Origin: an uncultured Verrucomicrobiae bacterium
Lineage (GTDB): Bacteria > Verrucomicrobiota > Verrucomicrobiia > Chthoniobacterales > UBA10450
Direction of reading: 5' to 3'
Assembly: GCA_963834385.1 (NCBI GenBank)
Contig: CAWIBO010000005.1
Span: forward strand, 576,001 to 640,000
Length of the DNA stretch: 64,000 bases
Part shown: in pieces, positions 9,719 through 31,108 of the stretch
Layout: each line of letters begins with the position of its first letter
Numbering within the stretch: position 1 is the first letter of the stretch
Notes under the pieces: model-generated
Told to the model about the DNA's origin: nothing
The model's input: only the letters and a program-made list of their open reading frames with translations
Databases searched by the model: none
Translations under genes and position numbers: made by a program

Positions 9719-11497
9719 TTGTCGAGCCGATCGCACTTATCTCTGCCCGCTGGCGAGGCCCCCCGCAAGTTGCTTCCGGGCGCCCTGGCCCTGGTCGCCC
9801 TCGCTTTCCTCTGGTTTATCCTCATCCGTCACCTCAGCAATGAATGGTCGGTGAACGAGCAATACGGCTACGGCTGGTTTGTCCCGTTCTTCGCCGCCTT
9901 CCTTTTCTGGCTGCGCTGGGAAGATCGCCGCCGCCCCTTCCCCTCCTGCTCTTGCTCCTGATCCTGCTCCTGCTCCTGATCCTGCTTCTCCTCGCGATCG
10001 TGCTCCTGCTCGTGCTCGTGCTCGTAATCCTGCTTCTGCTCCACCATTCACGATTCACCATTCACGATTCACGCTCCTGCTCCCCGCGGCCGCGGCCGCG
10101 CTGCTCCTGCCGGTCCGCGTTTTCGAGATCGGCAACCCCGATTGGCGCCCGCTCGGCTGGGTTCACGCCGCCATCGTCGTCGGGCTCACGCTCGCTTTCA
10201 TCCACTCGATCGGCGGCCGGTCCTGGCTTCGGCACTTCGCTTTCCCCGTTCTTTTCTTCCTCATCGCGGTGCCGTGGATCACGCCGGTGGAAGCGCCCGT
10301 GGTCCAGGGTCTCATGCGCATCGTCGCAATTGTCTCCACCGAAGTCGTCACGCTGCTCGGCATCCCCGCCCAGCTCGAGGGCAGCCTCATCCGCATCCAA
10401 AATGGCCTCGTCGGCGTCAACGAAGCCTGCAGCGGCGTGCGCTCTCTCCAGACCTCGCTCATGATCGGCCTTCTCTTTGGCGAACTGAAACGGTTCACCG
10501 TCGGTCGTCGGCTCGGACTGATCGTGGGAGCCGTCGTCATCGCCATGATCTTCAATTTCCTGCGCGCGATTATCCTGGTCTGGCTGTCCGCCACAAGAGG
10601 GGCGGAGGTGGCCAATTCCTGGCATGACGCACTCGGCTACGCCATCGTCGGCGGCGTTTTCCTTGGCACCATGGCCCTCGCCGCCGCCTTCGGACGCTCC
10701 AAAACCCCAATCGAAAATCGAGAATCGAAAATCGAAAATCCGTCACCATTCACGGCCCTGACCGCGACGCCGGCCGTCGCCGCCCTCCTCTGGCTCGTGG
10801 CCGTCGAGTTCGGCGCCGCCGCCTGGTATCGCGCCAGCGAAACCGATCTGGTCGCGCGCGAAAGCTGGACCGTGCAACAACCGACCGACGCTCCCGGTTT
10901 TCGCCCGATCGAGATCGACGATCAGGTTCGCCAAACCCTCCGTTACGACTCACGGCTGGCAGGTCGCCTGGACCGGTCCGATCCCCACCGATAACGGACA
11001 ACCGATCACCGATCACCACCGGAAACTCGCTCCGAGTTTCCAGCTCTTCTATCTTCCGCTGGGAACCCGGCACTTCCACCATCCTGCGGGCGCGGGCGCA
11101 TCGCCCGGATGTTTGTCTGCCGAACGTCGGCTGGCGCGAAGCGGCCGACCACGGCATCCGCTTTTACCAGGTGGGCGGCGGCCTCTCTCTTCCGTTCCGG
11201 CATTTCACCTTTGTCCGCGATCTGCCAGGGCGACGCGCACTCCAGGCCGAGGCTTTCTTTTGCATTTACGAAGACCGGGTCCGCCCCTCTTTGCAAACCA
11301 GCGCGGCCGACCTGACCGCCGGCGATGTGGGCGGGTGGATGCCGGCCGAACGGTTCCGCGTGGTCCGCGAAGGCCTGCGCAACCCCGGCCAGCAGGTAAT
11401 GGAATTGGTCATGCTCACGCCTGATGCCCTTTCGCCCGCCGACGCCCAGACACGCTTCGCCGAGATGCTCCCAAGCCTTGTCCAGACCAGCCGCTGA
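9719..11497 (+). CDS. Exosortase fused to a C-terminal EpsI-like domain (apparent frameshifts near 9930, 10950 and 10985-11050)
   Basis: N-terminal QYGYGWFVP; VNEACSGVRS (Cys), NFLRA (Arg) and WHDALG (His) catalytic triad; C-terminal FRWEPG...AHRPDVCLPNVGW (H-x-P-x-x-C...GW, EpsI-like). Confidence 0.88.
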
Positions 11498-11832: not shown

Positions 11833-13900
11833 ATGCCCAGCGATTTCATGATGACGCCGGAAGAGCTCCGGCTGCGCACCCGCAAACGCCGCCGCCTTTT
11901 CCTGATCCTCGGAATCGGCCTCGCGCTCGGGCTCATCATCTTTTTCGCTGCCCGCCCGACCGGTCGCGCCATCAAATCCTGGCAGGCCCGACGTCACGCC
12001 GAGAAAGCCTTTGCCTATCTCGACCAGGAGAAATGGGAGGAGGCGAAAAACTCGGCCGTGTCCGCCTATCAGCTTTCACGCAACGAGCCGCAGGCGATCC
12101 GCGCCATTGCACGGCTGCTTTCCCGGACCCGACAGGCGGAGGCACTCGAATTCTGGAAGCAGTTTCGCGCCGACAACAAGATGTCCGCCGACGATCTCCG
12201 CGACGAGGCAAGCATTGCGCTTCTGGCCGGGATCACGCCGCGGGCCGAAACCGCTATGATCGAGCTGCTGGCCCTGCCCCAGCCGGAACCACGCGACCAT
12301 CTGCTGGCCGCCCAGCTTGCGGCCCAGAAAGGATCGGCCGCCGAAGCCACCGCCGCGATCGACCAAGTCCTCGCCCATCCCAAAACCGACGAACGCGAAC
12401 GTCTCCAGGCCGCCATCCTCCTTCTCGGCGGTCGCGCCCAACGAAGAAACCCGCCAGCGAGCCTGGTCAGAGATCGAGAAGATCGGCCAGGGCCAGACCG
12501 CCCCCGCCCTCGACGCCCTCGTCCTCCTCGCGCAGCGCGCCATCTCCTCGCCGACTCCCCCCAATAACCAACAACCAATAACCAATAACCGCGCCGCCCC
12601 CGGCGCCACCCCCAATAACCAACAACCGATAACCGATAACCGCGCCGCAGGCGCCACCCCCAATAACCAACAACCAGTAACCAATAACCGCGCCGCCCCC
12701 GGCGCCACCGCCCTCGCCCAGGCCCTCACCGCTCATCCCCTCGCCGGCGCCTCGCAAAAACTCATCGCGCGCGACCTGATCATTCGCGACGCGCCCGACC
12801 AGCGGGAGACGATGATCACCGAAGCGATCGCCGAATGGAAACAGGGCAGCCCCGCTGACCTGGCGGCGCTCGCCATGTGGCTCAACGGCAAACAGGAGCA
12901 CGACCGGCTCCTGGAGATCGTTCCGCTCGAGACGGCGCTCCGGTCGCGCGAGCTTTATCTTCAATACCTGGACGCGCTCGGGCGCACTCGGACGCTGGGG
13001 CGAGATCAAGACCCTTCTCGAGGCCGAACGTTTCCCGCTCGATCCCGTGGTGCAGTTCATGTATCTGGCCCGGGCCACGACGCAGCTCGGTGAAAAGACC
13101 GCCGCGGAGAATAGCTGGCTGCGCGCGCTCGACGCCGCTCACGGCAATCCCGGCAAACTCATGAGCGTGGCCGCTTACGCCGAAAAGAACGGGATGATCG
13201 CGGTGGCCGACCAGGCCTATGCGACCACAATCGCCGAGGCCCCGAAACTCCGCGCGGCCCATCAGGCGCGGCTCCGCCTGGCCCAGGGCGAGCGTGACAC
13301 GCGCAAGATGAACGAGACCCTGCGCGTCATGCTCGAGCATTGGCCAAACGATCCCGCCGTGCAGAACGACGAAGCGTATACGCGGTTGCTCCTGTTGGGA
13401 GCGAACCGCGAGGAGTCAGAAGCCGGAAGTCGGGAGTCGGCAGAGTCCGCAGCCGAAGCGGCTTCTCCAACAACCAATAACCAACAACCAATAACCAATA
13501 ACAGCGCCGTCCGGCGCCACCCCCCAAACTTCAATCTCCCATCTTCCATCTCCCGGCGAGGTCTCCTCGCCGTCGCCACCTCAACAACCAATAACGGATA
13601 ACGGAGAACTCGACCAAATCGCAGCCCTCGCTGAGCGCTTGGTCGCCTCCAACCCCACCAGCCTCCCGCATCGCACCCTCCTTGCGCTGGCCCGGCTGAA
13701 GCAAGGCCGCCCCGCCGACGCCCTTAAGGTTTACGAGAACATTCAGGTGCCGCCCGGGGCCCTGACCGCCTCCGCCCTGGCCGTCCACGCCGCCGTCCTG
13801 GCCGCAAACGGCAATCTCGACGAAGCCAGGACCGAAGCCGGCACCGCCGCCCGGTCCGCCCTGCTTGCCGGAAGAGCGCGCACTTCTGACTAACATTTAG
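11833..13900 (+). CDS. Membrane-anchored TPR-like helical-repeat protein with translated repeat inserts (at least 4 frameshifts)
   Basis: Basic patch plus one TM helix (RKRRRLFLILGIGLALGLIIFF), then Ala/Leu-rich helical repeats across ORFs 11833, 12317, 13047 and 13639. Likely ends LLPEERALLTNI* at 13900. Confidence 0.75.
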
Positions 13901-13989: not shown

Positions 13990-14335
13990 CCCGGTAGGGC
14001 GAGACTCCGTCGAGCCTGGGATCGATAAGGGTGCAGACAGACAGGATTTACAGGATGAACAGGATTAGGTGAAGGCTCCCGCGGCCGAGGGCCGCTCCCC
14101 TTTCAGCTTTTCAGTTGTCAGCATTTCAGTTTTTGCCTTTAGGCTCCGCGCCCCACGCCCCATGCTCCGTGCCCGACCCTGTCAGCTTGTCAGCGTTTCA
14201 GCTTTTCAGCTTTTTTCTTCAAGCTCCCAGCCCCTGCTCCGCGCCCCTAGCTTCCAACTTCCATCTCCAATCTTCCGCGGCCGGCAGCCGCTCCCTTTCA
14301 GCTTTTCAGTTGTCAGCGTTTCAGCTTTTCTCTTA
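13990..14335. repeat. Mosaic repeat array (GTAG REP, 9-mer block, 8-mer TCAGCTTT blocks, 7-mers)
   Basis: GGTAGGGCGAGACTCCGTCGAGCC at 13993, ACAGGATTTACAGGATGAACAGGATT at 14041, and three TCAGCTTT-type blocks. Confidence 0.9.
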
Positions 14336-14345
14336 ACTCCCAACA

Positions 14346-14678
14346 ATGTCCCGCGGCCAACACCTCATCGTTCTGCTCCTTTCCGCCGCCTGTCTCATCC
14401 TCGCGGTCGCTGCGCTCGCCACCGCCCGGTCTAATCAGGATCTGCAAACCGAGCTGCAAGCCCAGCAAACCGAGATCAACAAAGGCGTGCTCAGCCAGCA
14501 GATCGGGACCAATCTCATCCGCGACATTGCCGGGTCCGCCATTCAAAACGAGAACCTGCGCGCCCTGCTCGCGCGTCACGGCTTCACCATCCAGGAAACA
14601 CCGGGACCGGCCGCCGCGCCCGCAAACGCCGCCACCCCTTCGTCGACGCCTGGCACTCCGCCGCCGCGCCGCCGCTGA
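14346..14678 (+). CDS. Small single-TM coiled-coil protein A1 (unknown function)
   Basis: TM helix, then NQDLQTELQAQQTEINKG..SQ.IG.NLIRD...NENLRALLARHG, and a Pro/Thr tail ending PRRR. Clear paralog of 21735..22085. Confidence 0.85.
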   Translation: MSRGQHLIVLLLSAACLILAVAALATARSNQDLQTELQAQQTEINKGVLSQQIGTNLIRDIAGSAIQNENLRALLARHGFTIQETPGPAAAPANAATPSSTPGTPPPRRR

Positions 14679-15070
14679 TGATGCGCCCGCCCCAACACCT
14701 TCCCCCGCAGCCACACCGTGACCTCGCCCATGGACGATCCGCCGTTGTTCAATCCGCCCCGGTCCGAACCGCGTTTTGGCCGCTCTTTTTCATCTCCCTC
14801 ACCCTGATCACCGTGCTCGGCTGGGAACTGGCCATGGCCGGCCAGGCCCGGCGCACCGCCCAGCAACTGCGCACCCAGCAAAACAGCGTGGTCGAACAGT
14901 CACAGCAGGTTCAACTCGCCCTCGAAAAGCTGGCGCGCGACCTGGTCGAGCTCGGCAAAACCGACCCCGCCGCCCAAGCCTTGGTGACGAAGTACAATAT
15001 CAGCGTAACCGGCGTCCCCTCGTCGCCCGGCCACGGCGCCCTCCGCGACCCCTCAGTAGCGGCCGTGTAG
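14678..15070 (+). CDS. Small single-TM coiled-coil protein B1 (unknown function; start uncertain)
   Basis: AFWP plus TM helix, a Gln-rich coil, then LEKLARDLVELGKTDPAAQALV. Paralog of 22093..22470; start overlaps the A1 stop. Confidence 0.82.
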   Translation: MMRPPQHLPPQPHRDLAHGRSAVVQSAPVRTAFWPLFFISLTLITVLGWELAMAGQARRTAQQLRTQQNSVVEQSQQVQLALEKLARDLVELGKTDPAAQALVTKYNISVTGVPSSPGHGALRDPSVAAV

Positions 15071-15095
15071 CGTCGGCCGTCCGCGTGTCCCCTCG

Positions 15096-15292
15096 GGAGA
15101 TCAGTGATCGGTGATCGGCGATCCGTAGTCGGAGATTAGCCCCTCCTGCTCCTGCTCTTGATTCCTGCCCTCTAAGGAGATCAGTGATCGGCGATCAGTT
15201 CCTCCCTTGGCTGCCGACCATTCACGGTTCACCATTCAACCATTCACGCACCCTTCCCCCCGGTAGGGCGAGACTCCGTCGAGCCTGGGAGC
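15096..15292. repeat. Mosaic repeat array (7-mer TGATCGG, 6-mer CTCCTG, 7-mer CCATTCA, GTAG REP)
   Basis: GGAGATCAGTGATCGG twice, CTCCTGCTCCTGCTCTTG, and a REP at 15262-15285. Confidence 0.85.
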
Positions 15293-15430
15293 AAGCGTGG
15301 CTGCTCAGAGACAGAATCTTCAAAACTAACCCCCTTCTGCGCTGAAAGGTGACGTAATAGATTGCGAATATACCACTTACACGACTTCTTACGCGCGCAT
15401 AACTTTTCTCGGAAAATTGTGGAAATTCCT

Positions 15431-15459
15431 TTGACAGAAAACCGATAAACAGGTCTACT
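15431..15459 (+). promoter_or_regulatory. Putative sigma70 promoter of PEP-CTERM gene 1
   Basis: TTGACA-N17-TCTACT in an AT-rich stretch ~95 nt upstream of ATG 15554. Confidence 0.55.
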
Positions 15460-15553
15460 GCGCCTCAGCTTTTCCACGTCCCCTTCCCCCCGCAGAACCT
15501 CTCCTCCCCCCAAGTCGCGAAATTCATCGCCCTTCGTTTGTACCTGATCCCCC

Positions 15554-18500
15554 ATGGATTCTGATCTCTCCTCGCGTCCACTAGACGAGCGCCAGCTCTC
15601 CACCAAAGGATTCACCATCCTTTGCATCGTCTTCCTCCTCCTCGCCGCCGCCGCGGCTTCGTATGGGCAGACATGGACCGGCGGAGGTTCCAGCGATGAT
15701 TGGGGCGATGGTGGTAACTGGTCCGGCGGTGCCCCCAGCTCATCAGGGAGCGCGATCCTAAACTTTGCAGGGACCGCGAGGCTGCAACCTTGGAACAACT
15801 ACGCGAACTACACCCAGTTTCAGTCGATCTTTTTCAATGCAGGTGCAGGGGCATTCACGCTGCGCGGGAATGCAATCAAGCTTTTCGGGAATATCCAAAA
15901 CGACAGTTCGAGCTTGCAAACAATCAACTTCGGATCGTCGGGCGAAGGTAAATGGGGCTTTGTTGGTGGAAATAATGCGGACAGACAATCGTTTCACCCT
16001 GAACAGCGGTAACATAACTGTTAGCCAGTCCATTTTCCTCGATAACGGGGCTGGCATCAATGTCTATGGCTCGAATCGTAACACGTTGACTCTGGATGCA
16101 GTGGTCTTTGACGGCATTGGCGCGAGCGGAGATTTCACAATCAATACCGATCAGCTTGTTATCTTCAATGCTGCGAATACGTATTCGGGACAAACACGCA
16201 TCAAAGCGGGTGAGTTGCGCCTTGGTAACAGCGGTGGGATCAAGAGCGGCACCACCTTCTTTCTGGGTAATTCATCCGGGTCAGCAAATGCTACGCTTAG
16301 CCTAAACGGCTCCAGCCAGACGATTTCGAACGCGGTGAATGTCGAGTCGGGGAATACCGGCACGATGACCGTTCAGTCTTTGAATAATTCGGGGACGAAC
16401 ACTCTTAGTGGGACGCTCACCTTGAATAAGGCGACAACAATTTCTGCGGTCTCCGGTGGCACGTTAGCAGTGAACACGATCACTGGTGTTAACACGAGCA
16501 ACACGCTGACCATTGGCGGAGCGGGAACGGTCAAGTTGGGTGGGACCGTCGACAACACCAATCTCAGCATCAATGCCGCGAGTGGAACATTGATTCTGGA
16601 AAAAACGAGCAGCGGACCCGGCGGGCTCGTCGCAGGCGTTCGTTCGCTGGGCGGCACTCTGACGCTTTCCGGGGGAACCGTCCAGATCGGCGGCACCGGA
16701 CAGGGCGGGAGCACGACCAACGTCGACCAAATCTATAACGGGGCGGACGTAGTGGTGAACAGTGGCACCCTTGATCTGAATGGACGCAACGAGACGATCA
16801 ACGGCTTCAGCGGGACGGGCGGGTATGTGACCAACAATGCCACCGGAACCAGCACCCTTACGGTCGGGTTTGATGGCGCTACTGGCACCTTCGCTGGCAC
16901 AATCCAGGACGGCGGCAGCGGCAAAGTCCTTGCCCTGACAAAGACCGGCAGCGGCACGGTTACTCTCTCGAACACGACCAACACTTACACCGGCGGCACC
17001 GTAGTTTCCGGCGGCCTCGTGGCTATCCGAGAAGGTACAAGCTGGGGGCGTCGCCAGGATCGTTTCAGGCAGCAAACGTCACGTTGAATGGCGGCGGATT
17101 GACCGTCGATTGGACTGCGACGTATGCCGTTGCGTTGCAGACGAACCGGGGTGTTACAATCGGCTCAGGCGGCGGGTCCGTAGGTGCCGGCACCGCCCAC
17201 AGTTCGTCACTAACAATCAACGGTGCCATCGTGAATAACGCCGGCGCCGGCCAGTCTTTCTTCCTCGGGGGCACCAACGCTATCACCATCGGCGGCGCCA
17301 TTTCTGGTTCCGGTCTTGTCCAGGTAAATGGCAGCAACGTCGCCTTCAGCGGAACGAACACTAATTCTGGTGGAACGCAGATCGATAGCGGGGCGCTGCT
17401 AAAGATGAATGGCGGGCAGCTTCAGTCGACAACGGTCGGCTCGCTGGCTGCGAATGGCACGTTTGATCTGAATGGCACGTCTCAGACTGTCGCCGGCCTG
17501 ACGGGAGCAAGTAGCGGCAGTATCCGAAATAACAATGGCACCGCAGGTTCGCTGACGATAAGCGTCGCCACTGGGAACAATACGTTCAACGGCACAATCG
17601 GTAACACAGGCCAAAATGATCTAAGCCTCACGAAAGGGGGGAGCGGCACCCTCTCTCTCACCGGAGTCAATACGTTCACTGGTGGGATCGTAGTGAACGG
17701 CGGGACCCTTTCCGTAAACTCGAATAGCGCGCTTGGCGATACAGCAGGCGTCGTTACTCTGAACGACGGGGCCACGTTCAACAACACTGCGATTGTGAGC
17801 ACCGCCAACGGTATGCGCCTCTTTACAATCACGAATGCTGCCAATGCTACCATCACTTTCAACACCGGAGCGGACTGGAGTTTTGCCTCTAGCGGGACGC
17901 GTGGGATCAGTGGCGGCTCTTCTACCACAACTCTGATCAAAACGGGCGCTGGTACGCTCACCATCAACAACAACTCCCAGTCCCTGACCGGCAACTGGCG
18001 GATCGATCAGGGGACACTTTCGAATTCCTTCGCGAACGCTAATTCATTGGGCACGGGCAACGTGACGCTAAACGGCGGCACGTTTCTAATGAGTTCCTCA
18101 CTGTCGAGAACTGCCGATCGGATTTTCACCTTCAACAATGTCGCGGGCAACGTCATGGACGTGGCCACGAGCGGCATATTCGTCTTTGACGTGGCGAATC
18201 GACTTACAGGCGCAGGTGGGTTCTCGAAGACTGGCAATGGCACACTCCAGATCGCTGCCGGGCAAAATTATGCCGGCACTACCCAAATCACTGGTGGCGT
18301 GATCTCGATAACAGGCGCGGGCAGCATCGCCAACGGAGCGTCCGGTTCCCGTGTGAATATATCGTCTGGTGCGCAACTCGACATCAGTGGCAGCACGTCG
18401 GGAGCGAGTGTCTCAATTATTTCGGAAACCGGCGGGACCAACGGGGGTGCAGTGAAGCTTGGGGCGCGAACCCTCACGATGAACGGAGGAGCGGCGAGCA

Positions 18501-21500
18501 CGACTTACCAGTTCGACAACCTCGGCATTGCTGGCGACACGGGCGGGTTCACTTTGAATGGTGCGAACGCCAGCACGACGCTGCGACTTTACGGGGCCTC
18601 TGCGTATACGGGCGCGACAAGCATTCAGCAGGGCACCTTGGTCCTGGCAGGCACAGGAGCGTCCTCCGGTTATACTCTCTCGGGCGGCGGCCTGACGACC
18701 GAAGGAGCGAATCGTCTTACCAGCGCCAGCAACATTACTGTGTCGAATAGCGGCAGTACCTTTACAGTTGGCGGGGCTACGGAAACGGTCGGGGCACTCG
18801 CGGGCAGCGCAGGCACGATTGCGATTGGTGCAAACACTCTGACCACCTCTAGCGCCAGCTCGACGACATATAGCGGTGTCTTCACCGGTATCGCGGCTGG
18901 CCGGCTTGAGAAAGGCGGAACTGGCACGCTGACCCTCGGCGGAAGCGGAAGCGCGTTCCTCGGGCAGCTTAAGTTGGCAGAGGGCACAGTCGTTGTGAAC
19001 AGCGCTTCAGCTTTGGGCAATAACACCTCGACTTCGACGCGCGCGATCGACCTAGGCCTTAACGCTGCGAACACCTCTCAAGCAAACAACGTTTCGCTGC
19101 TCGCGAGCAACGGCGTCACGTTCAGCCAGTCCATCTACGTTGCGCCGAACACGTCCAACGCCACGCGCACCATCGGCTTGAATGGCGGCGCCGGCTCTGC
19201 CACATTTAGCAACGAAATTTTTCTTGCTGGCAACGCGACGCTCGATGCCACCGGCGGCGCGACGACCGTCAGTGGCAGGTTGACTGGCGCTGGCGGCATT
19301 ATTGCCAATGCCGGAAACATCTCCTTGAATGCGGCAAACAATTATACGGGATCTACCGCAGTCAATGCCGGAACTCTCACCATCAAAAACAATAGTGCTT
19401 TGGGAACGACGGCAGGTGGCACCAGCGTCGCTGGCGGCGCGACTCTGAAGCTTGATGGCACGGGCAGCTCGCTTTCAGTGGGCGCGGAGGCTCTCACCCT
19501 TAACGGGAGCGGCGTCGCCAACGGTGGCGCCCTGGCAAACGTCGGCACGAACTCCTACGCTGGCGCCATCACTTTGGGCAGCAACGCGTCGATCCACGCC
19601 GGCGGAGGAACGCTGAATCTCACGGGCGGAATTACGAAAGATGCCAAAATTCTTACCCTTACCGGTGGCGGTACGATCACCCTCAGCACCTTCGGAATTT
19701 CCGGCGCGTCAGCCGGTTCCGACCTGATCGTGGATGGCGTTACTTTCAATGCCAACGTCGCCAACGACTACAACGGTCCGACGTCGATCATCAACGGCGG
19801 TGTCTTCAACGCGAACGTCGCCGATGCCCTCCCCCCCGCGAACGGCCGCTCGGCTGTCAGCATGGATGCGACCGGCTCCGGCAGTTCGCAGCTAAACCTG
19901 GGTGCAAATCAATCCATTGCCTCGCTGCTCGGACTCAGTTCTTCGCTGATCAATTTGAACGCGTTTACTCTCACGTTCGGCACCGGGGCAGGTACCTTCC
20001 GATTTCGCCGGTGTCATTTCTGGCAGTGGTAAACTCGTGAAGGATGGTGCCAGCACCCAGTCGCTCTCCGGAAACAACAACTTCAGCGGGGGCACTGATC
20101 TTGCCGGAGGAACGCTGGCCATTAACAGCGCCTCTTCGCTCGGAGCCGTGGGCGGTGCTCTCGCTTTCACCGGGACCAGCACTCTCCGGACGGATGCAAG
20201 CTTCAGCTCCGCTCGTAATTATTCGATCAATTCCGGCGTCACAGGGACCATTGACACCAACAACAACACCTTCACGCAAACCGGCGTCATTTCGGGCGAT
20301 GGCAACCTGAGCAAGTCTGGTGCGGGATCGCTGATCGTGACCGGCACCAACACCTACCTTGGTGCAACCACCATCAACAGCGGGATCCTTCAGGTCGGAA
20401 ATAACGGCACAACGGGAACGCTCGGTGCCGGGCAGGTGAACATTGGCGATGCCGCCACGTTGCGTTTTGACCGCTCCGATCCGTTTTCGGTCAGCAACAG
20501 CATCAATCTCGCGGGCGTTGGCGGTCAGCAGGGCTTTGTTAATGTCTTCAGGAGCGGGCAGCAGGTAACGCTTACCGGGGCGATCACCAGCGCCGGCGCC
20601 GGTCTGACCAAATCGGGACTGGGCAAGCTCGTGGTCGATAATGCCTCGAACAGCTTTACGTCAGATGTCCGTATTCAGAGCGGGATCCTGGAGACCGCAA
20701 CTCTCTCATTCGGCGGTTCCAACAGTTCCCTCGGGAAAGGCAGCATCTTTATTGGCGACGACGGAAGTGCCGGCACATTGCGTTACACCGGCACAACGGC
20801 CAACACAGACCGGCTGCAATTCAACGCCCTTCAGGCGACCGGCACAAACAACATCATCGACGTGGTTTTCTTCCGGGACCACCCTCACGGTCACCTCAAA
20901 TATGACCGAAGACGCTGCGGGCAATGGCCTAGCTAAGGAGGGCGCGGGCGCGCTTAGTCTGACTGGAGCCAACAACTATAGCGGCGCTACTTCGGTTAAC
21001 GCTGGCTCGCTGTTCGCGAATAATTCGTCGGGTTCGGCTACGGGCACCGGAAACGTGACCGTGAACAATTCCGGCACAACCCTGGGCGGCACTGGCGTGA
21101 TCACGGGCACCGTGAACGTTGGGGCAGGCGCCAACCTCGTCGTCGGTAGCACGGCAGCCGCAGGAACAACCGAAACCCTTCACATCGGTTCCCTCACCCT
21201 GGCTTCCACTTCTAACTTTACCGTCGACCTGATGGGCACGGCGGTTGGCTCAAGTTACGACCAACTCCTCGTCATGGGTGCGGTCAATCTTGGAGGAGCA
21301 AACCTGATCGTGAACGCAGGGGCTGGACTTAACCTTCTGGATAAGTTCTTTATCGTTTCGAATGACGGTGTCGACGCCATCAACGGAATTTTTAGCCAGA
21401 ATGCGACGGTTAGCTCCGGGAACTACCTTTTTGCCATTAATTATCTCGATAATTTCGGTGGGGTCGGTCCCGGAAACGATATCTCGTTAACCGTGACCGC

Positions 21501-21597
21501 CGTCCCCGAGCCCGGCACGTGGATCGGCGGCTCGCTCGCGTTCCTCGCGATCGGCTACACCCAGCGCCGCCGGTTCCTGAAGCGCCGCGCTTCTTAG
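15554..21597 (+). CDS. Giant (~2,000 aa) PEP-CTERM protein with autotransporter-associated beta-strand (PATR-like) repeats; 4 apparent frameshifts (~15975, 17045, 19995, 20868)
   Basis: Signal peptide then TWTGGG...W....NW; many LTKxGxGTLxLxxxNTYTGGTxVxxGTL repeats; C-terminal VPEPGTW, TM helix and RRRFLKRR. Confidence 0.9.
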
Positions 21598-21599
21598 CC

Positions 21600-21730
21600 G
21601 TAGGGAGCACGGCTTTGTAAGCCGTCCATTAGCCGGGTTACGAACCCGGCCTCCTAACCGAATAAGTGAACGCGCGCACCTGCGCGCTACTTTCTCCTTT
21701 CGACTTTCGACTTTCGACCTTCTACTTTCT
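21600..21730. repeat. REP-like hairpin pair and TTTCGAC heptamer block
   Basis: GGAGCACGGCTTTGTAAGCCGT and CCGGGTTACGAACCCGG hairpins (related copy at 22472-22520); TTTCGACTTTCGACTTTCGAC at ~21698-21718. Confidence 0.7.
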
Positions 21731-21734
21731 CCAA

Positions 21735-22085
21735 ATGTCCCGTTCCCAGTTCACCATTCTCCTGATCATCGCCCTCGCCTGCCTCGGGCTGGCCGCCGCG
21801 GGGATTGTCGTCGCGCACGGGAACCAGGCGCTCCAGGCCGAGCTCCAGGCGCAACAGGCTGAGATCAACAAGGGCACGACCAGCCAGAGGGTGGGTTTGA
21901 ACCTGGTGCGCGCCATGGCGGTGTCAGCACGGAAGAATGACAACCTCAAGAGCCTGCTCGACCGACACGGCTACAAGCTGAGAGAGGACGAGCCTGCGGA
22001 GACGTCGGCGGACGAACCGGAGCCGGCCGCGTCCCCCTCGCCCACTCCAACTCCTTCCCCGACGACAACGCCGCGCCGCCGCTAG
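21735..22085 (+). CDS. Small single-TM coiled-coil protein A2
   Basis: MSRSQF.. plus TM helix, NQALQAELQAQQAEINKG..SQ.VG.NLVR...NDNLKSLLDRHG, tail ending PRRR. Paralog of A1. Confidence 0.87.
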   Translation: MSRSQFTILLIIALACLGLAAAGIVVAHGNQALQAELQAQQAEINKGTTSQRVGLNLVRAMAVSARKNDNLKSLLDRHGYKLREDEPAETSADEPEPAASPSPTPTPSPTTTPRRR

Positions 22086-22092
22086 AAACATC

Positions 22093-22470
22093 ATGGAAGA
22101 TCGCGACACACCCCACCACGACCCGGCCCCGGCGCCCGCGGCGGTCCGCCGGCCGCTGAACGCCTTTTGGCCGGTCTTGATCCTGTCGCTCAGCATCCTG
22201 GCCATGTTCGGCTGGATCGTTTGGACCGGGGTGCAATCGCGACAAAAAGCTCTCGAGGTGCGCGAGCAGCAGGAGAAATCAGTCGAACGCGCCAGGGAGA
22301 TGCAGCGCGCGCTCGAACGTTTGGCGCGCGACCTGGTGGAGCTTGGAAAGACCGATCCCGACGCGCAGGCGCTCGTGACCCAGTTCCGTATCAATGTGGT
22401 GGCGCCGTCCGGAGCCGCTCAAGCCCCGTTTTCGAGTGCCACCGACACCCCGGCTGGAGCGGGCCCTTAA
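22093..22470 (+). CDS. Small single-TM coiled-coil protein B2
   Basis: AFWP plus TM helix and coil, then LERLARDLVELGKTDPDAQALV. Paralog of B1. Confidence 0.87.
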   Translation: MEDRDTPHHDPAPAPAAVRRPLNAFWPVLILSLSILAMFGWIVWTGVQSRQKALEVREQQEKSVERAREMQRALERLARDLVELGKTDPDAQALVTQFRINVVAPSGAAQAPFSSATDTPAGAGP

Positions 22471-22471
22471 T

Positions 22472-22790
22472 GGAGAACGGATTTGTAATCCGTTGAGCCA
22501 GGTTACAAACACCGGCCACCGAAGACTCAGCAGCGAGAGTATCCCAATACAGGTGATCAGTGATCAGCCGCTCCGCTCCCCCAACTCCCATCTTCAAGCT
22601 TCCGCGGCCGAGCCGCCACGCTCCCGTCCCGCTCCATGCTCTAGCCACCGCATCTTCTAGCCTCCCCGCTGTCTCGCCGCTGCTTCATTCCGCAGTCCGA
22701 GATGGGCAATCTTCTCCACCGAACGGATAACCGAAACCCGCGCGTCAGCGCGCTCCCGCCCGCTTTCAGCTTTTCAGCTTGTCACCTGCC
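22472..22790. repeat. Mosaic repeat array (GGAG hairpin, 7-mer and 8-mer blocks)
   Basis: GGAGAACGGATTTGTAATCCGTT, GTGATCAGTGATCAG and TTTCAGCTTTTCAGCTTGTCA. Confidence 0.7.
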
Positions 22791-22940
22791 CGCAGCGCTC
22801 GCGCAGCGATTGCGGGCGTGGGCGTCCCCGCTCCAAGCCCCGCTCCCCCTCGCCTTCCAATTTCCATAGTCGTTGGACGTCTGGTCGACCACCAGCGGTA
22901 GGGGTGAAGTTGTTCACCGCTCTTCACAGGCCGCAACATG

Positions 22941-23382: not shown

Positions 23383-26300
23383 ATGACTTTCCAGCCTCTT
23401 TCTTTCCTCAGCCGCGTGCAGCAACAGCCTTTGACGCGGCTTCGCGCGGCAGCCTCCTCCCTCGCTAAAACCTTCGGCGCCTCGCTTCCGCGCCGCATTT
23501 CCGCCTTTCACTCCCTCTTCTGTTTGATGATGGTCGCTTCCTCGTTCTTTGCAGTGGCGAGCACAACTTTAGGAGCAACCTACAATTTATGCACCTCTAC
23601 TGCTGACCTGACCGCTGGTTCCAAATATATTGTTGTTTCAACAGGGACCAACGGATCCGGCGTTGCGCTGAGCTATCAAGCTGCGAGTAACAGACCTCAG
23701 TCCGCCTCGGTTACTGTAGCCTCAAGTGCGATTTCAACGACGGCGGCATCCGTCTCATCGGATACAACCTCAGCGTACGAGATCACTCTCGGCGGGAGCA
23801 CCGGGGCGTGGACCCTTTATGATGCAGTTAACGCTGGATATCTGTATGCCGCTAGCTCATCTAATAATCACCTTAAGAATCAATCGACCTCAACGACTTG
23901 GACAATAACTTTTTCTTCAAATGCTGCAATCATGACCAGTGCGGCGCAGGCGACTCGTAACGTATTACAATACAATTCCACCAGTTCTTTATTCTCGTGC
24001 TATACCTCGGGTCAGTCTTCCGTTTACCTGTATAAGTTGGCAGCCGGCCCCTCTGCCCCGGTCGTCACGACCGGCACCGCCGGCACCTTCACCACCACTT
24101 CCGCAGCAATTACCGGCAACAATGTGACTTCAGATGGTGGCTCCGCTGTGACTGAGCGCGGCATCGTCTATAACACCAGCGCAACACCGACTACAGCGAA
24201 CTCGAAGGTCACGGTCGCAGGTACGACCGGCAGTTACGACGCAAACATGACCGGTCTGACGGCTGGCACCACTTATTTTGTAAGGGCCTACGCGATCAAC
24301 GCCATCGGCACGAGTTACGGTTCCGAAATCAGCTTCCCCACTTTGCCCTCAGCGCCGGTGGCGAGCGCGGCAACGGCCATCACCTCCAATAGTTTCAGCG
24401 CGAACTGGGCGGCCGCGACCGGAGCGACCAAATATCGCCTGGATGTATCGACTGATAACGCATTCGGCAGTTTCGTTTCCGGCTTTAGCAGCTTGGATGT
24501 CGGAAACGTAACGACGAAGTCGGTTACGGGCTTGGCGGTCGGAACAACTTATTATTACAGAGTCAGAGCAGAAAACGGCTCAGGCCAGAGCGCAAACTCC
24601 GGCACGATCACGACCGCCACCACCACGCCGACCATCGTCATCACCGGCTCCTTCACCCCGTTTACCACAACCTTTGGCACAGCCAGCGCAGCGCAATCAA
24701 TCAGCGTTTCAGGGTCCAACCTTCTGGCCAACATCACGGTCACCGCCCCCACCAACTACGAGGTATCGCAAACGGCTGGCGGAGCCTCTGGTTATGCGGC
24801 TTCACAGGTATTAACGCAAAGCGGCGGGACAGTTCCCAGCACTACCGTCTATGTGCGGATCGCTGCTTCCGCGCCGGTTGGATCTCCGGCCGGCAATGTC
24901 TCCGCCTCGAGTACGAGCGCGACTACCCAAAATGCGGCGGTGAGCGGAACGGTGTCGGCCGCGGCGCCGACCGTGACGACGACCTCTCCCGCAACGAACA
25001 TCTCTACAACTTCAGTGACGTTGGGTGGCAATATTACCAACACGGGCGGCTCGAATGCGACAGTGCGCGGCTTCGAATACAGCACGACCAACGGGTTCGC
25101 CAATGGAAGTGGAACACCGGTTTCTGAAAGTGGCAGTTTCTCAACGGGTGCCTATACCCTGCCTGTGACCGGCCTCACCCCTGGAACGATCTATTACTTT
25201 AAAGCCTTCGCCACGAATCCCGGTGGAACCAGCTACGGAGCGCAAGTCTCCTTCACGACAGTGCAGGCATACTCGGGTTCTTATAGCGTAGGAACAGGCG
25301 CACCGCTCTACACCACTCTGAAATCGTTCTTCGACGCGGTGAATGCCGGTGTAGTGACAGGGAACATCACCGTAAACATTGTCGGCGATTGCGCCGAATC
25401 AGCTGCTGCCGTCCTGAACCAATGGACGGAATCACCCGCGAGTTCGAATTTCACCATGTTGATCCAGCCCTCGGGCGGAGCGGCCAGGACGATTTCCGGA
25501 AGCATCTCGGGAAATCCATTGGTCAATTTCAACGGCGCGGACAACGTCACCATCAATGGCTTAAATTCGGGTGGGAATTCGCTCACGATTTCCAACACTG
25601 ATTCGGGCGCGACCTCCGGCACTTCTACGATCAAATTCATCGGTGGTGCAACCAACAACACCATCACCAACGCGAGCGTGCTCGGATCGAGCAGCATGGC
25701 CGTGGGGACGAATGGCGGCAACATCTGGTTCAGCACTGATGCCGTTACTTCCGGCGGCAACGACAATAACACCGTCTCCAACTGTAATATAGGTCCAGCG
25801 GGCGCCAATCTACCTACGAAGGGAATCTTCGGAAGCGGGTCCACCGGCACAACCGCGATTGGCAACAGTGGCATCGCCATTAACAATAATAACATCTTTG
25901 ACTTCTTCGGCGCGGCGACGACAAGCGCCGGTGTTTACACGAGCGGCGGCTGCAACACCTGGACAATTACCAATAATCGCTTCTATCAAACCGGGACGCG
26001 CACTTGGACAACCGGCGCGAACCATTTTCCGATCGACATCAACAATACCTCCGCCACATCCGGAGCCCAAGGTTTCACGATTACCGGCAACACAATCGGC
26101 TACGCCTCGAACACACAAACTGGCGCTTACACTCTGACTGGTTCAACGGGCAAATTTGTTGGCATTCACTTTAACGGAATTACAGGCGGGACGAGCAGTG
26201 ACATTTCGAGTAATACGATCGCATCGGTCAGTCTGAGCGGGGTTACGTCCTCCGGCACCAGCACCAGTAGCCCTTTCATCGGCATATACATTGAAACCGG

Positions 26301-29300
26301 TGTCACCGCCACGAACAGCAACGTCCTGGGCAGTCAAGCGGTGACTGGCTCTCTGACGTTCTCCACTACCACAACGACTGCCACAGATGTTCACGGCATC
26401 TACAATTTCAGCTCAGACGTGTGGACGTCCAGCAGCAATAACATCGGCGGCATTTCTGTAACCAATGCAGGAGCCTCTGGAACGTTTACCGTGTATGGCC
26501 TGAGAGCCAATACCCTGACCAGCGTGGCCTGGACCGCCGCCTCGAACCTCGTTGGCGGAACCGTTGCCGACTCGATTCAATTGAATGCGACAGGCGCGGC
26601 CTCGCAGGTCATAGGCATTCACACGAGCAACGCACCCTCCACCCTGACCTCCAACACCGTGAGGAATCTCTCGTCGAACATCGGCACCGGAACGACTACG
26701 GGCGCCTCTGTGATCGGGATGAATTTAACGACCACTTCATCCAACCACACTCTTTCCCAGAATACGATTCATAGCCTCGCCAATACGAGTGCTGCGACAG
26801 CGACCACGGTGACGGGAATCCAATACACCGCGTCAACGGGCCCCAACCTAATCAACAGGAACTTCATCCATTCTTTATCGGCCGCCAGCACTACGGGGAC
26901 ATTGAATGGAATTCAAGTAAGCGGCGGCACCTCCACTTACCGGAATAACATGATCCGCCTGGGAGCGACCACCTCTACCGCGCTCACCATTAACGGAATT
27001 AACGACGCTGCCGGAACCAATAATTTCTATTTTAACAGCGTCTACGTCGGCGGCAGCGGAGTCGGCACGACGGCCAGCAACACATTTGCATTTCGTAGCC
27101 TTGTGACAACCAACACCCGCGCGTTCGTTGACAACATTTTCATGAATGCGCGCTCCAATGCGACCACCGGGGGCAAACATTATGCCGTGCAGGTCGGGGG
27201 CACCACTTCGAATCCAGCGGGCCTGACCATCAATTACAACGTTTATTTCGTCTCCGGAACCGGCGGCGTTTTCGGTCAATTTAACGGCGCGGATGTCGCT
27301 ACCCTCACGGCTTGGCGCACAGCAGTCGGCCAGGACCTTAACAGCATCAGCGGAGACCCTCAGTTTATCAATCCAACCGGCAACGCTACCACCGTTGATT
27401 TACATATCAGCCCAAGCGTCGCTACGCCGGTAGAAAGCGCGGGAAGCCCGATCGCCGGCATCACGATCGACTTTGATGGTGATACCCGAAATGCGACCAC
27501 GCCGGATATAGGCGCGGATGAGGGGACCTTCATTTCGTCTGTTACGGCTGCAATCAACGTGTCGCCGAGTAGTCTCTCCGGATTTTCTACGAACTTTGGC
27601 ACGCCGTCGGCCGCGCAATCGTTTGACGTATCAGGCACCGACTTAACAGGCGACATTTCGATCGCGGCGCCGGCGGGATACGAGGTGTCGAAAACCTCCA
27701 GCACATCTGGATTTTCCGCCTCTCAATCCTTGACTCCTTCGAGCGGCACGGTGCCGACGACGGCTATCTTCGTGCGACTGACAAACGCCGCTCCGGTGGG
27801 TTCTGTTGCGGGCAACGTTATTGTGAGCAGCCCCAGCGCAGCCACCCAGAATGTGGCGGTGAGCGGCAACGTGACAGCCAATGCGCCAGCCGTGACAACC
27901 GGCACGGCAACATTGATTACCACGACAGGAGCCACCCTGGGCGGCAACATCACGGCAACCGGGGGTTCGAATGCGACCGAACGAGGCGTTTACTACAGCA
28001 CAACGAGCGGCTTCGCTAATGGAACCGGAACCAAGGTTTCTACGACCGGTAGCTACACCACTGGCGCTTACACCGTGGCCGCGAGCGGCCTGAGTGACAG
28101 CACGACTTACTACTTCAAAGCCTTCGCCACGGGTCCAGGGGGGACGAGCTACGGCTCGGAGGGCACGTTTAGTACCCTTGAAGCCCGAGCCGGCGGCACA
28201 TGTCACCAGCTTTACGACTGGAACAATCACCACCACGAACATCCCGGTGCAATGGACGGGCACAACGGCTGACGGGTACCTGTTAAGGGTAAGTTCCACG
28301 ACTCCAGCTGATCCAGTGGATGGAACAGCCGTGTCGGATAAGGCGGCGATTACCAGTGGGACCGGCAATATCAATCTTCCCGCCGGGACTACCTCGTACT
28401 CCGGCTTCACCGGGTTTCTCGCTGGAACGACTTACACGTTCAAGATCTACCCCTACAACAACAGCGGAACGGCCATTGACTATAAGACAACGGGTGCGCC
28501 GAGCGTTTCTGCCATACTTGTCCCGGCTGCGCCGGCCACGCCGACATTCACCGCAGTAACCTCGACCGGCTTCACGGTGAATTGGGGCGCGGTCAATGGC
28601 GCAGCGAGCTACCGACTGGATGTTGCTACCGACAACACCTTCACGAGCTTCGTTGCGGGTTATAGTGATCTGACCGTGTCTGGAACGAGTCAAGCCGTGA
28701 CGGGTCTCGGCGCGAATACTCCCTACTACGCACGCGTCCGGGCCGTTAATGCCAGCGGCACAAGCGCTAATTCGAGCGCGGGAACCCTGACAACTGCCCA
28801 GCTGTCGGCTCCGGTAACCCTGCCAGCCTCAGCCATCACCACGACCGGATTTACGGCCAATTGGAATCCCGTTACGGGCGCGACGGGTTACGAAGTGGAT
28901 GTATCGGAGCCTGGTCCCGTGCTGGCTGAGGACTTTACCGACGGTGATTTCACTGCTGCTCCGGTTTGGTCAGGGGACACGGCGAGTTTCGCGATTCTCT
29001 CTGCAGCTACCTTGCCGAGTGGATCTGCGGCGACTGATGGAAATTATCTGGGAAGCAATGGGAGTGTAGGGAGTGCCATTCTTACGACTCCAAGCACCGA
29101 GACCTCAGAGTGGAGGTTTTCATGGGGATCGCCCAGCTTCAGTCCATCTGGCGCGAATCATTTCGGCGTTATCCTAATGTCCACTGCCGCAGTGACGGGA
29201 GACATCGCTACTGCATCATTTAACGGCTATTATCTACGACTTGGGGCCAACGGGAGCGCCGATACTGTAGAACTGTGGAGAAGCACGGCGACCACTAAAA

Positions 29301-31108
29301 CGAAAGTGGGAGATTTTCCCAGCGCGCCGGGGCTCGACACCGCCGCGTTGCAAGATGGTCTCGACGTGCGCGTTACTCGTAACGCGGCCGGCGTATTTCA
29401 GCTGTTTTATGCCACGGGCTTCCAGTACGGAGCCACCCCAACTACGTCCGCTGGGACTCTGACGGACGCCACCTACTCCTCCAGTGCATACTTCGGCGTC
29501 TACACTTCGTTTGGCAATCCTTCGGCAACGCGCCGCGTCTATATCGATAATATCGTATTCGCTACTCCGAGCCAGGTGTTTTTGACCGGCGGCACCACCG
29601 CGGGAACCAGCTTGAGCTTCTCCGGGCTGTCAGCAGGAACTGCTTATTCCTACGTTGTCCGGGCGACGAGCGCGAACAGCACCAGTCCAAATTCCGACAC
29701 CCGCTCTGTCGCTACTACAGCGACACCAACCATCGAGATCAGCGGGACGCTAACCGCCTTCACCACCACTTATGGAGCCGCCTCCTCTGCCCAAACACTG
29801 AACGTCTCCGGCTCAAATCTAACCACTGACATCACGGCAACGGCTCCCGCCGGATACGAGGTCTCCAATGGCGGGCCTTACGGTCTGACCACAACCTTCT
29901 CTCAAAGCGGTGGCTCAGCCACCGGCACCCTGAGCACACGTCTCGCGGCCCTGACCAAGCCGTCGGATTCGCTCGGAACAAATCTGGCCGTCGCCAGCAG
30001 TGGCGCGTCCACGCAGAACGTCACTGTCTCAGGCACGGTGAACAAGGCCACGCCCACTGTGACCGTCGACGCACCGTTCACCTTTACCTACAACAACACC
30101 GCCCAAGGGCCGAACAGCGCCACGGTTACCGGTGTTTCCGGCGGGGTGGCCCCGTCTGGCACCTTGAGCTTCAGCTATGCCGGCAGCGGGATGACCACCT
30201 ACATGGCCAGCGCCACAAGGCCGACCGACGCCGGCTCGTATGACGCCACCGCCAGCATCACAAGTGACGCGAATTACCTGGCGGCCTCCTCCGCAGCCAC
30301 CGCCTTCTCCATTGCCAAGGCCGACCAGACCATTTCGTTCACCCTGCAATCGAGCGTGGCGAAATCCGCCGGCTCACTCGGGTTGAGCGCCTCCGCCACG
30401 TCCGGATTGCCGGTCTCGTTCGCCTCAGGCACACCGAGCGTCGCAGGAGTCACAGGCTCGACGCTCAATCTCCTCCAGGCCGGCACGACCATTGTCACCG
30501 CCAGCCAGGCCGGCGGCACCAATTACAACGCCGCTCCCAACGTCGACCGGACCCTCCATGTCACCGGGCCCATCGCGGCCAACGACATCAACATCACCCG
30601 GCCGGCCAATAGTTCGGACTTCAAAATCCCGATCAGCGATCTCCTGGAGAACGACCAACGCGTTGACGCCAACGGGAATCTCCTGCCCACCGGCATCAGC
30701 CTGAGCTCGGTGACTGCCGGTATGGACAACTTTGTCGAGATTGCTGGCTCCTATGTCTACTTCGAGCCGGTCGATCCGGCCGCCTCGCCGCTCTCCTTCA
30801 CTTACACCATCACCGACGGCAGCTCGGAGGACACGGCCACCGTCACGGTCACGACCGCCGCCGCCGAGAACTTCACGCTCAACATCGTGAGCGCCGGCGC
30901 CCTCTCCTACGACTCCATGGCCGACGAAACGACCGTGACCGTCCAGCTCATTGGCGTCCCGAATCAGACCTACACCATCGAATATTCCAATAACATGATG
31001 TCCTGGACAAACCTGGGGTCGACCGCCACCGGCTCGACCGGGTCGTTCCAGGTGACCGTTATCGCTCCCGGCAACCAGAACTCCTTCTTCTTCCGGGCAC
31101 GCAAATGA
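23383..31108 (+). CDS. Giant (~2,570 aa) secreted Thr/Ser/Gly-rich multidomain protein: FN3-like repeats, parallel beta-helix, Ig/MBG- and cadherin-like domains, C-terminal 'Y.IE.S..W...FFR' domain; frameshift near 28180
   Basis: Signal-like hydrophobic stretch; YYYRVRA/YYFKAFATN.GGTSYG FN3 motifs; I.NN.I beta-helix repeats ending DFDGDTR...PDIGADE; KADQTISF; PIAAND; ends YTIEYSNNMMSW...SFFFRARK. Confidence 0.88.

Follow-up and report, generated by a model that had tools for sequence, protein, structure and literature searches.

What is encoded by four small genes that stand as two similar pairs among exosortase and surface-protein genes of an uncultured Verrucomicrobiae bacterium? The pairs, A1-B1 and A2-B2, are found in a window of 64,000 nucleotides (GenBank assembly GCA_963834385.1, contig CAWIBO010000005.1, positions 576,001 to 640,000; coordinates below are those of the window), taken from a genome of 2.9 Mb in 5 contigs with a completeness of 89.6%. 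All four open reading frames (ORFs) lie on the + strand. A1 (14346..14678; 110 residues) is composed of a short N terminus, one transmembrane (TM) helix at about residues 7 to 29, a Gln-rich coil, a C-terminal head (helix-turn-helix with G-aromatic-x-I), and a Pro/Ala tail. B1 (14678..15070; 130 residues) shows a disordered N terminus, a TM helix framed by the motifs FxP and W[QE], a coil, a head, and a tail. The second copy consists of A2 (21735..22085; 116 residues, counted from the ATG aligned with the Met of A1) and B2 (22093..22470; 125 residues). A and B are paralogous coiled-coil membrane proteins that make up a genuine, hitherto undescribed pair restricted to certain lineages, and they very probably form a bitopic coiled-coil heterodimer, a new variation on a known, FtsBL-shaped architecture.

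A sequence-only reading of this locus described A and B as each duplicated and tightly linked, and both statements hold. The motifs that it quoted are present: the core NQxLQ...LLxRHG and both PRRR ends for A, and AFWP and LExLARDLVELGKTDPxAQALV for B. The stop codon of A1 and the start codon of B1 overlap by 1 nt (TGATG), with a second ATG 3 nt after the B1 start, and A2 and B2 are separated by 7 nt. Genome-wide tblastn searches give 52 to 55% identity between A1 and A2 (55% over 84 residues; E value of 2e-25) and 44 to 46% between B1 and B2 over 101 to 120 residues (E value of ~1e-23), and no further copy of A or B was found in the 89.6%-complete genome. Purifying selection on both copies, proposed in the same reading, is supported by NG86 estimates of nonsynonymous (dN) and synonymous (dS) divergence, with full-length dN/dS ratios of ~0.29 for A (0.38 and 1.33) and ~0.35 for B (0.52 and 1.46), which are rough because dS is close to saturation. 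The ratio is ~0.2 for the cores (A, 0.32 and 1.73; B, 0.32 and 1.49) and 0.5 to 0.65 for the TM parts (A, 0.55 and 0.84; B, 0.51 and 1.00). The flanks of the two copies have only simple repeats in common; the duplication is therefore not recent. In the phylogenetic tree, both window copies fall into one clade with relatives of the same family; the window proteins cluster with Spartobacteria- and Verrucomicrobiae-titled records, and those of family f8 of the same order cluster with Chthoniobacteraceae-titled ones, which points to a Verrucomicrobiota genome of the Chthoniobacterales type. The two copies look like a duplication within the lineage of this family, with an old split between A and B.

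The resemblance between A and B themselves is that of ancient paralogs, as had been suggested. Their pairwise likeness alone is weak (23% over 90 residues; E value of 0.003 among the four sequences), but the profile-profile match is significant (97.5%; E value of 8.6e-12; 80 columns). Among all ORFs of the window genome, the sole additional matches of each profile, up to an E value of 0.05, are the genes of its partner. The head of A (residues 50 to 85 of A1; 14493..14600, + strand) is homologous to that of B (hhalign 95%; E value of 2.6e-8), with a score of 31.4 compared to 8.0 ± 2.0 (maximum, 18.4) in 100 column shuffles. The family consensus of the B head is DLLxLAxTDxDAKAIVxKYxI. The halves containing the TM helix and the coil are generic, with A matching B at 33% and FtsB at 79%; it is the specific match of the C-terminal heads that marks A and B as true paralogs. 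The single-chain models of these proteins, each with one long and one short helix (B2, residues 25 to 87 and 89 to 97, with a predicted local distance difference test score [pLDDT] of 83; A1, residues 3 to 65 and 69 to 77, with a pLDDT of 69), are too simple for fold searches to be informative.

Relatives show that A and B occur as one unit. A total of 183 unique B loci were collected, most of them fetched through B, and 13 have less than 100 nt upstream; the remaining 170 comprise 164 with A directly upstream (one of them frameshifted), 2 A-B fusions, and 4 without A. Frequent solitary genes and a lack of A-B profile similarity had been named beforehand among the observations that would refute the reading; the profile similarity is significant, and solitary genes are rare (4 of 170). 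Solo A was tested mainly by a search of 301 genomes of the order, in which B gave matches in 57 genomes, A in 57, and both in 56; the counts include the unpublished genome G007, which is negative for the pair. The two unshared matches are weak (E values of 3e-4 and 9e-4) and lie inside frames of 600 to 700 residues, and no genome with a convincing single A or B is found among the 301. The gap between A and B is at most 22 nt in 46 of 53 pairs, and 12 pairs show a four-base overlap.

The lengths of the two coiled-coil stalks, taken between fixed anchors, agree within 3 residues in 153 of the 159 measurable pairs (of 163 in total; gaps at the anchors ruled out the other 4). The remaining 6 pairs deviate by more than 3 residues, and the Spearman correlation is 0.94. 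The length classes, given as A/B, are 0/0 (39 pairs), +3/0 (34), +7-8/+7 (17), +11/+11 (6), +15/+14 (9), +22/+21 (47), and +50/+49 (1). Long-stalk variants occur at the loci L265 (+50/+38, with Pro-rich inserts) and L329 (+50/+49). On a 74-row tree built without the insert columns, the length class is inferred to change 8 times in A and 8 times in B, and each of these changes is shared by both chains. Since the genes are almost always together and the stalks lengthen in step, A and B very probably constitute one two-chain envelope rod.

Residue couplings between the chains, calculated from 159 pairs, modestly favor a parallel A-B register. Six of the top 10 inter-chain couplings deviate from the parallel register by no more than 4 residues, a range that makes up 11% of the cells, and these in-register couplings include A46-B71, A47-B72, and A44-B68. 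When pairings were shuffled within tight clusters, within loose clusters, or overall, this number was reached in 1, 0, and 0 of 40 runs, respectively. The joint top coupling, between D60 of A and Y106 of B, connects head to head. Two metagenomic single-chain A-B fusions, P0155 (L258:442-1146) and P0156 (L289:127-735), further join the two halves: here, the coil and head of A are followed by a short B coil and the B head, without the B TM helix. Both fusions begin with short signal-peptide-like segments, one of which ends in a lipobox-like Cys (read by eye), and neither has a Pfam match.

Several findings weigh against an obligate heteromer. Four B genes lack an upstream A, and two of them (L267 and L271) look intact and directly follow a prepilin-type gene. 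The length co-variation comes down to only 2 independent contrasts on well-supported branches (4 on all branches), too few for a sign test to become significant. The couplings come from a shallow analysis with an effective depth of 85, and their top z score of 7.4 is barely above the shuffle maxima of 6.5 to 7.3. The two exported fusions are known from 1 and 3 contigs, and no relatives of either were found among named genomes. On contig L285 (minus strand, ~1990 to 2790, Chthoniobacter-like), A and B are in one frame with both TM helices; the stop and start at the junction seem deleted, perhaps because the assembly collapsed there or because the allele is dead. If it encodes a working protein, it stands against the model, because two TM helices would place the coils on opposite sides of the membrane. 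The two apparently intact solo B genes would fit co-transcribed paralogs that each form their own homo-oligomer; this is very improbable in view of the matched heptad-sized indels, the in-register inter-chain couplings, and the single-chain fusions. The prepilin-type gene before these two B genes matches N_methyl just below the cut-off. A search for longer B-containing proteins of 299 to 2,000 residues found none, and fusions of 200 to 265 residues fall outside that range. The origin of A and B from one ancestral gene and their assembly as an obligate parallel heteromer with a joint head have strong indirect support and are highly likely.

The comparison with FtsB and FtsL, drawn by the sequence-only reading, stands for the bitopic heterodimer, which is very probable from linkage, matched stalks, couplings, and fusions, and beyond that amounts to an analogy of shape. 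FtsB and FtsL pair through a parallel heterodimeric coil of ~30 residues, in which polar residues are buried; a short helix and a C-terminal strand follow, and the C-terminal strands join FtsQ in one sheet (PMC10076392). A and B are likewise two small single-pass proteins, with a predicted layout of a TM helix, a polar coil of ~30 residues, a short helix, and a terminal strand. Such a layout would be expected of a distant FtsB/FtsL relative that serves as an alternative regulator of a SEDS/PBP or FtsQ-like complex, and the short LxKTDP motif of B aligns with LLKTDP of FtsB (22%). At an E value of 0.01, DivIC is matched by 5 of the 139 B members and by 1 of the 51 A members, in each case short of the cut-off. 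Control alignments of FtsB and FtsL from the same bacterial order (27 and 29 rows) match the full profiles at 67% (A with FtsB), 5.6% (A with FtsL), 22% (B with FtsB), and 8% (B with FtsL), and the best of these matches covers the TM helix and the coil only. The control heads reach a score of at most 11.4 against the A and B heads (0.2 to 1.6%); the heads of FtsB and FtsL also match each other at only 1.5%, compared to 93.6% for their full profiles, which leaves room for a very remote kinship. Membership was rejected for B2 (14.3 bits versus a cut-off of 28.9) and A1 (12.9 versus 42.45) with PF04977, TIGR02209, and NF002058. The window genome contains canonical eno-ftsB and mraZ-rsmH-ftsL-ftsI loci filled by genes other than A and B. 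A second rsmH-like gene lies outside its division cluster (contig C5:336175-337041), and several relatives have similar second copies. In contrast to the adjacent A and B genes, ftsB and ftsL stand at separate loci in this genome, and FtsB is present in 33 of 33 genomes, compared to the pair in 56 of 301. The pair is patchy, sometimes duplicated, and variable in stalk length, it coexists with canonical FtsB and FtsL, and no division gene recurs near 40 loci analyzed with wide flanks. A common origin with FtsB and FtsL is thus improbable.

Other two-chain systems were compared as well. GspL/GspM and PilN/PilO likewise are bitopic proteins with a TM helix and a coil that are encoded by adjacent genes, and GspM_XpsM is the commonest weak NCBIfam match (8 of the 51 A and 4 of the 139 B members; best E value of 5e-4), with the 60-bit cut-off not reached and the matches examined covering the TM helix and coil only. 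The A and B chains stop ~35 residues beyond the coil, within a low-complexity tail, which leaves no room for the additional domain of ~90 residues present in the GspM-like proteins retrieved for comparison. Comparisons by hhalign with Gsp proteins give 0.2 to 14% and have low power because GspM and GspL themselves match at only 3.8%. A separate GspM-like gene is found elsewhere in the window genome; type II secretion or type IV pilus genes do not recur among the neighbors of the 40 loci, and pilin motifs lie near 2 of 134 loci. A phage i-spanin (Rz/LysB) was rejected, with weak LysB matches only and no lysis neighbors seen; a pattern of the B head has one viral match, which is not a B gene.

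The ATP synthase subunits b and b' are adjacent paralogs forming a TM-anchored heterodimeric coil. A and B are shorter and lie outside atp operons, and their assignment as b/b' was rejected: there is no match to PF00430, the atpF model is matched by 2 of 139 B, and atpF of the window genome lies within its atp operon. The b/b' stalk serves as the model for a heterodimer that points into the cytoplasm (N terminus outside, C terminus inside) and scaffolds a cytoplasmic or membrane partner. The charges of B agree with such an orientation: its N terminus is acidic, and more basic residues follow the TM helix than precede it. Within 15 residues of the B TM helix, Lys and Arg average 0.84 on the N-terminal side and 2.13 on the C-terminal side, compared to 4.41 and 3.07 for the FtsB control, which does not favor a periplasmic C terminus for B. 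At 10 residues, the FtsB control itself points the wrong way, and this ambiguity means that the positive-inside rule leaves the topology unsettled. The flanks of A are neutral on this measure; its short N terminus carries no acidic residue before the TM helix and usually a basic one. Together with the signal-peptide-like starts of the two fusions, this suggests that the heads of A and B probably face the periplasm. A cytoplasmic orientation is unlikely, and no atp gene recurs near the 40 loci.

The proposed arrangement starts from two paralogs of one ancestral gene that would now always assemble with each other, in parallel and in register. The N terminus of each would anchor it in the membrane and lead into a polar, Gln-rich coiled-coil stalk, which would carry two helix-turn-helix-strand modules packed as one small head. 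A coiled coil rises by 0.15 nm per residue. The head would stand ~5 nm from the membrane in the window type and ~1 nm further with each added heptad. By analogy with FtsBL and FtsQ, a third partner in the envelope probably docks on the conserved head, perhaps through an added strand.

All four proteins stay below the Pfam and NCBIfam cut-offs, and no family in the PDB fits; the 139 B and 51 A relatives show only scattered weak TM-and-coil matches to such models. Word-based searches with single A or B proteins return almost no homologs. A B profile of 9 rows matches 913 representatives at an E value of 0.001 and 353 at 1e-10 among 1.84 billion, each representative being a cluster at 50% identity. 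The ESM Atlas matches are unnamed clusters only (scores of 0.93 to 0.94), with rows provisionally assigned to Binatota and Pseudomonadota among them, and the source names of relatives read "hypothetical protein," apart from one cluster named YpmS. DNA-pattern scans recovered true B genes in 23 of 26, 91 of 95, and, for metagenomes, 57 of 59 matches. Within the order, the pair is present in 38 of 39 genomes of family f8, 13 of 39 of f9 (all of one genus), and 4 of 39 of f1 plus the window genome; it was not found in families f6 (30 genomes), f7 (39), f13 (31), f14 (36), and f16 (17). At the phylum level, 17 of 401 genomes matched. Named records with the pair include Chthoniobacter flavus Ellin428 and those labeled Terrimicrobiaceae, Kiritimatiellia, Lentisphaeria, and Methylacidiphilales. 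Two records titled Blastochloridaceae (L346 and L354) also carry it; the label may not reflect their lineage because the neighbors in L354 resemble those of the Verrucomicrobiota loci L327 and L353. No title or abstract opening was found that describes the pair, and supplementary proteomics or signature-protein tables could list these genes.

The gene context gives the lead to function. Most loci have housekeeping neighbors such as LacI, the CCA enzyme, and tRNA ligases; Chthoniobacteraceae-type genomes have the pair behind a LacI gene and, in many cases, ahead of the CCA enzyme, and no neighbor is shared across lineages among the 40 loci. The box TTGAC occurs 28 to 66 nt upstream of 91 of 149 A genes, compared to 5 of 149 in a control stretch, and the pair is therefore usually its own transcription unit. 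In the cultured Chthoniobacter flavus Ellin428, the pair is compact and comes with a TTGAC box and a terminator-like hairpin. A sigma-70 consensus promoter was not detected ahead of either window copy, and copies that stand next to surface-protein genes are among those lacking the box. For the window lineage (the window, L089, L090, L197, L255, and L257), these neighbors are TPR, PEP-CTERM, and giant secreted protein genes. In a Kiritimatiellia-type group (L070, L071, L179, and L188, to which L081 also belongs), the pair lies directly before giant genes with autotransporter-type beta-strand repeats (PATR), identified in L179 by motif only. A second Terrimicrobiaceae-type copy (L342, L350, and L376) directly follows autotransporters, confirmed by Pfam in L342 and L376. 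The box is kept in L081, where the pair follows PEP-CTERM and TSP3 genes, and in L298, where it lies between two exosortases. In L071 and L188, stop and start codons overlap with the adjoining sorting or surface-protein genes. A neighborhood of surface-protein or sorting genes thus exists in several lineages and is neither general nor obligate.

Such a context suggests that the pair acts as an envelope adaptor or holding factor for making or exporting large surface proteins, such as PATR passengers, autotransporters, and PEP-CTERM substrates; it would normally be driven by its own promoter, with extra copies placed beside surface-protein genes as in the window. This role, which draws on gene context only, is tentative. 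A periplasmic A/B heteromer that helps in the production or export of surface proteins is the best explanation overall, at somewhat short of an even chance. Two counts speak against it. In a crude motif scan, 12 of 134 loci have PATR, PEP-CTERM, or pilin motifs next to them (4 of 20, 3 of 12, 2 of 46, and 3 of 56 by crude group), compared to 17 of 300 random windows of the window genome. The window pairs and several relatives lie within an exosortase-TPR-PEP-CTERM cluster, but are not co-distributed with its TPR gene: this TPR family, which accompanies exosortases, is present in 125 of the 301 genomes (G007 among them) and discordant with the pair in f6, f8, and f13, with 8 of 39 genomes in f8 (pair in 38 of 39) and 26 of 30 in f6 (pair not found). 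No cut-off of exosortase-system models is reached by A or B, the closest being HpsJ-family matches in 4 of 139 B (~17 bits versus a cut-off of 60).

These counts agree with the same periplasmic heterodimer acting as a general envelope spacer or scaffold in contact with peptidoglycan or outer-membrane proteins, without a special tie to export; its surface-gene neighbors would then reflect insertion into variable envelope islands. The housekeeping neighbors, differing between lineages, and the promoter of its own also fit this. Coils that keep their length while their sequence diverges are described as spacers (PMC5082667), and the A/B stalk length is likewise conserved within clades and from one partner to the other. 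A scaffold is harder to reconcile with stalk lengths that span 49 residues and with at least four separate placements beside genes for sorting or surface proteins, in some of which stop and start codons overlap; it is judged rather unlikely. Because of the results of the motif scan and the TPR family, the export helper is kept as the lead ahead of, but close to, this scaffold. A more specific version is equally doubtful: in Verrucomicrobiota, the pair might be a factor, not described before, that assembles or holds giant beta-repeat surface proteins in the periplasm, with a portable two-chain head that is carried on twin stalks or as a lipoprotein or secreted chain, a heptad-tuned stalk that serves as a ruler for the envelope of each lineage, and a place as the missing part of a barrel-less PATR/PEP-CTERM surface route.

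In the window, the genes follow one another on the + strand in the order exosortase, TPR-like gene, A1-B1, PATR gene, A2-B2, giant Fn3 protein, and second PATR/PEP-CTERM gene. The exosortase (EpsH family) ORF piece (9879..10994; PF09721, E value of 1.8e-35) seems to continue past both ends in other frames. The TPR-like membrane protein gene directly upstream of A1 (11833..13893) consists of several frameshifted pieces with weak PrsT-like matches, none over any NCBIfam cut-off, and shows 46 to 53% identity to an intact homolog in L089; it contains low-complexity TNNQQPI-type repeat inserts near 12545 to 12700 and 13470 to 13600. The 6-kb PATR gene between the copies (15554..21597) is made up of five overlapping or abutting ORF pieces with changing frames; PATR is over the cut-off, and its PEP-CTERM-like end scores 17.3 bits, below the cut-off of 20.7. 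A giant fibronectin-III/cadherin-like secreted protein (23383..31108) in two pieces follows A2-B2, and a second PATR protein with a PEP-CTERM-like end (31105..33273) completes the series. Between 9700 and 33300, the exosortase, TPR, PATR, and Fn3 genes are thus split by frameshifts, for which assembly errors are the likely cause, and the four small A and B genes are intact. Giant secreted proteins (window 28094 to 31108; L081, L197, and L257) carry a short F[FY]R[VIA] motif near the C terminus, a possible second sorting signal. Short runs of TTTCAGC/TTTCGAC-type repeats occur in intergenic stretches around the pair (14090 to 14340, 21700 to 21730, and 22760 to 22800).

In Chthoniobacteraceae-type genomes, a conserved unannotated gene pair precedes (LacI)-A-B (L105:8467-11428; also L094, L095, L099, L100, L103, and L106), encoding a single-TM protein of ~135 residues and a helical protein of ~620 residues with a signal peptide. 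It has no Pfam match at 1e-4 and was not found in the window genome. The genes c11 and c2, located before A-B in Chthoniobacteraceae, gave no tblastn match in the window genome, and an obligate partnership with them was therefore rejected.

A and B thus represent a sizeable unnamed family, present in nearly all Chthoniobacteraceae-type genomes and found here and there in records labeled Kiritimatiellia, Lentisphaeria, and Methylacidiphilales. Their matched heptad indels provide a natural experiment in coiled-coil pairing. If the link to surface export holds, the pair would be an extra part of a poorly understood secretion route of abundant soil and lake bacteria; if it fails, the pair would still be a new FtsBL-shaped envelope complex that is distinct from FtsBL.

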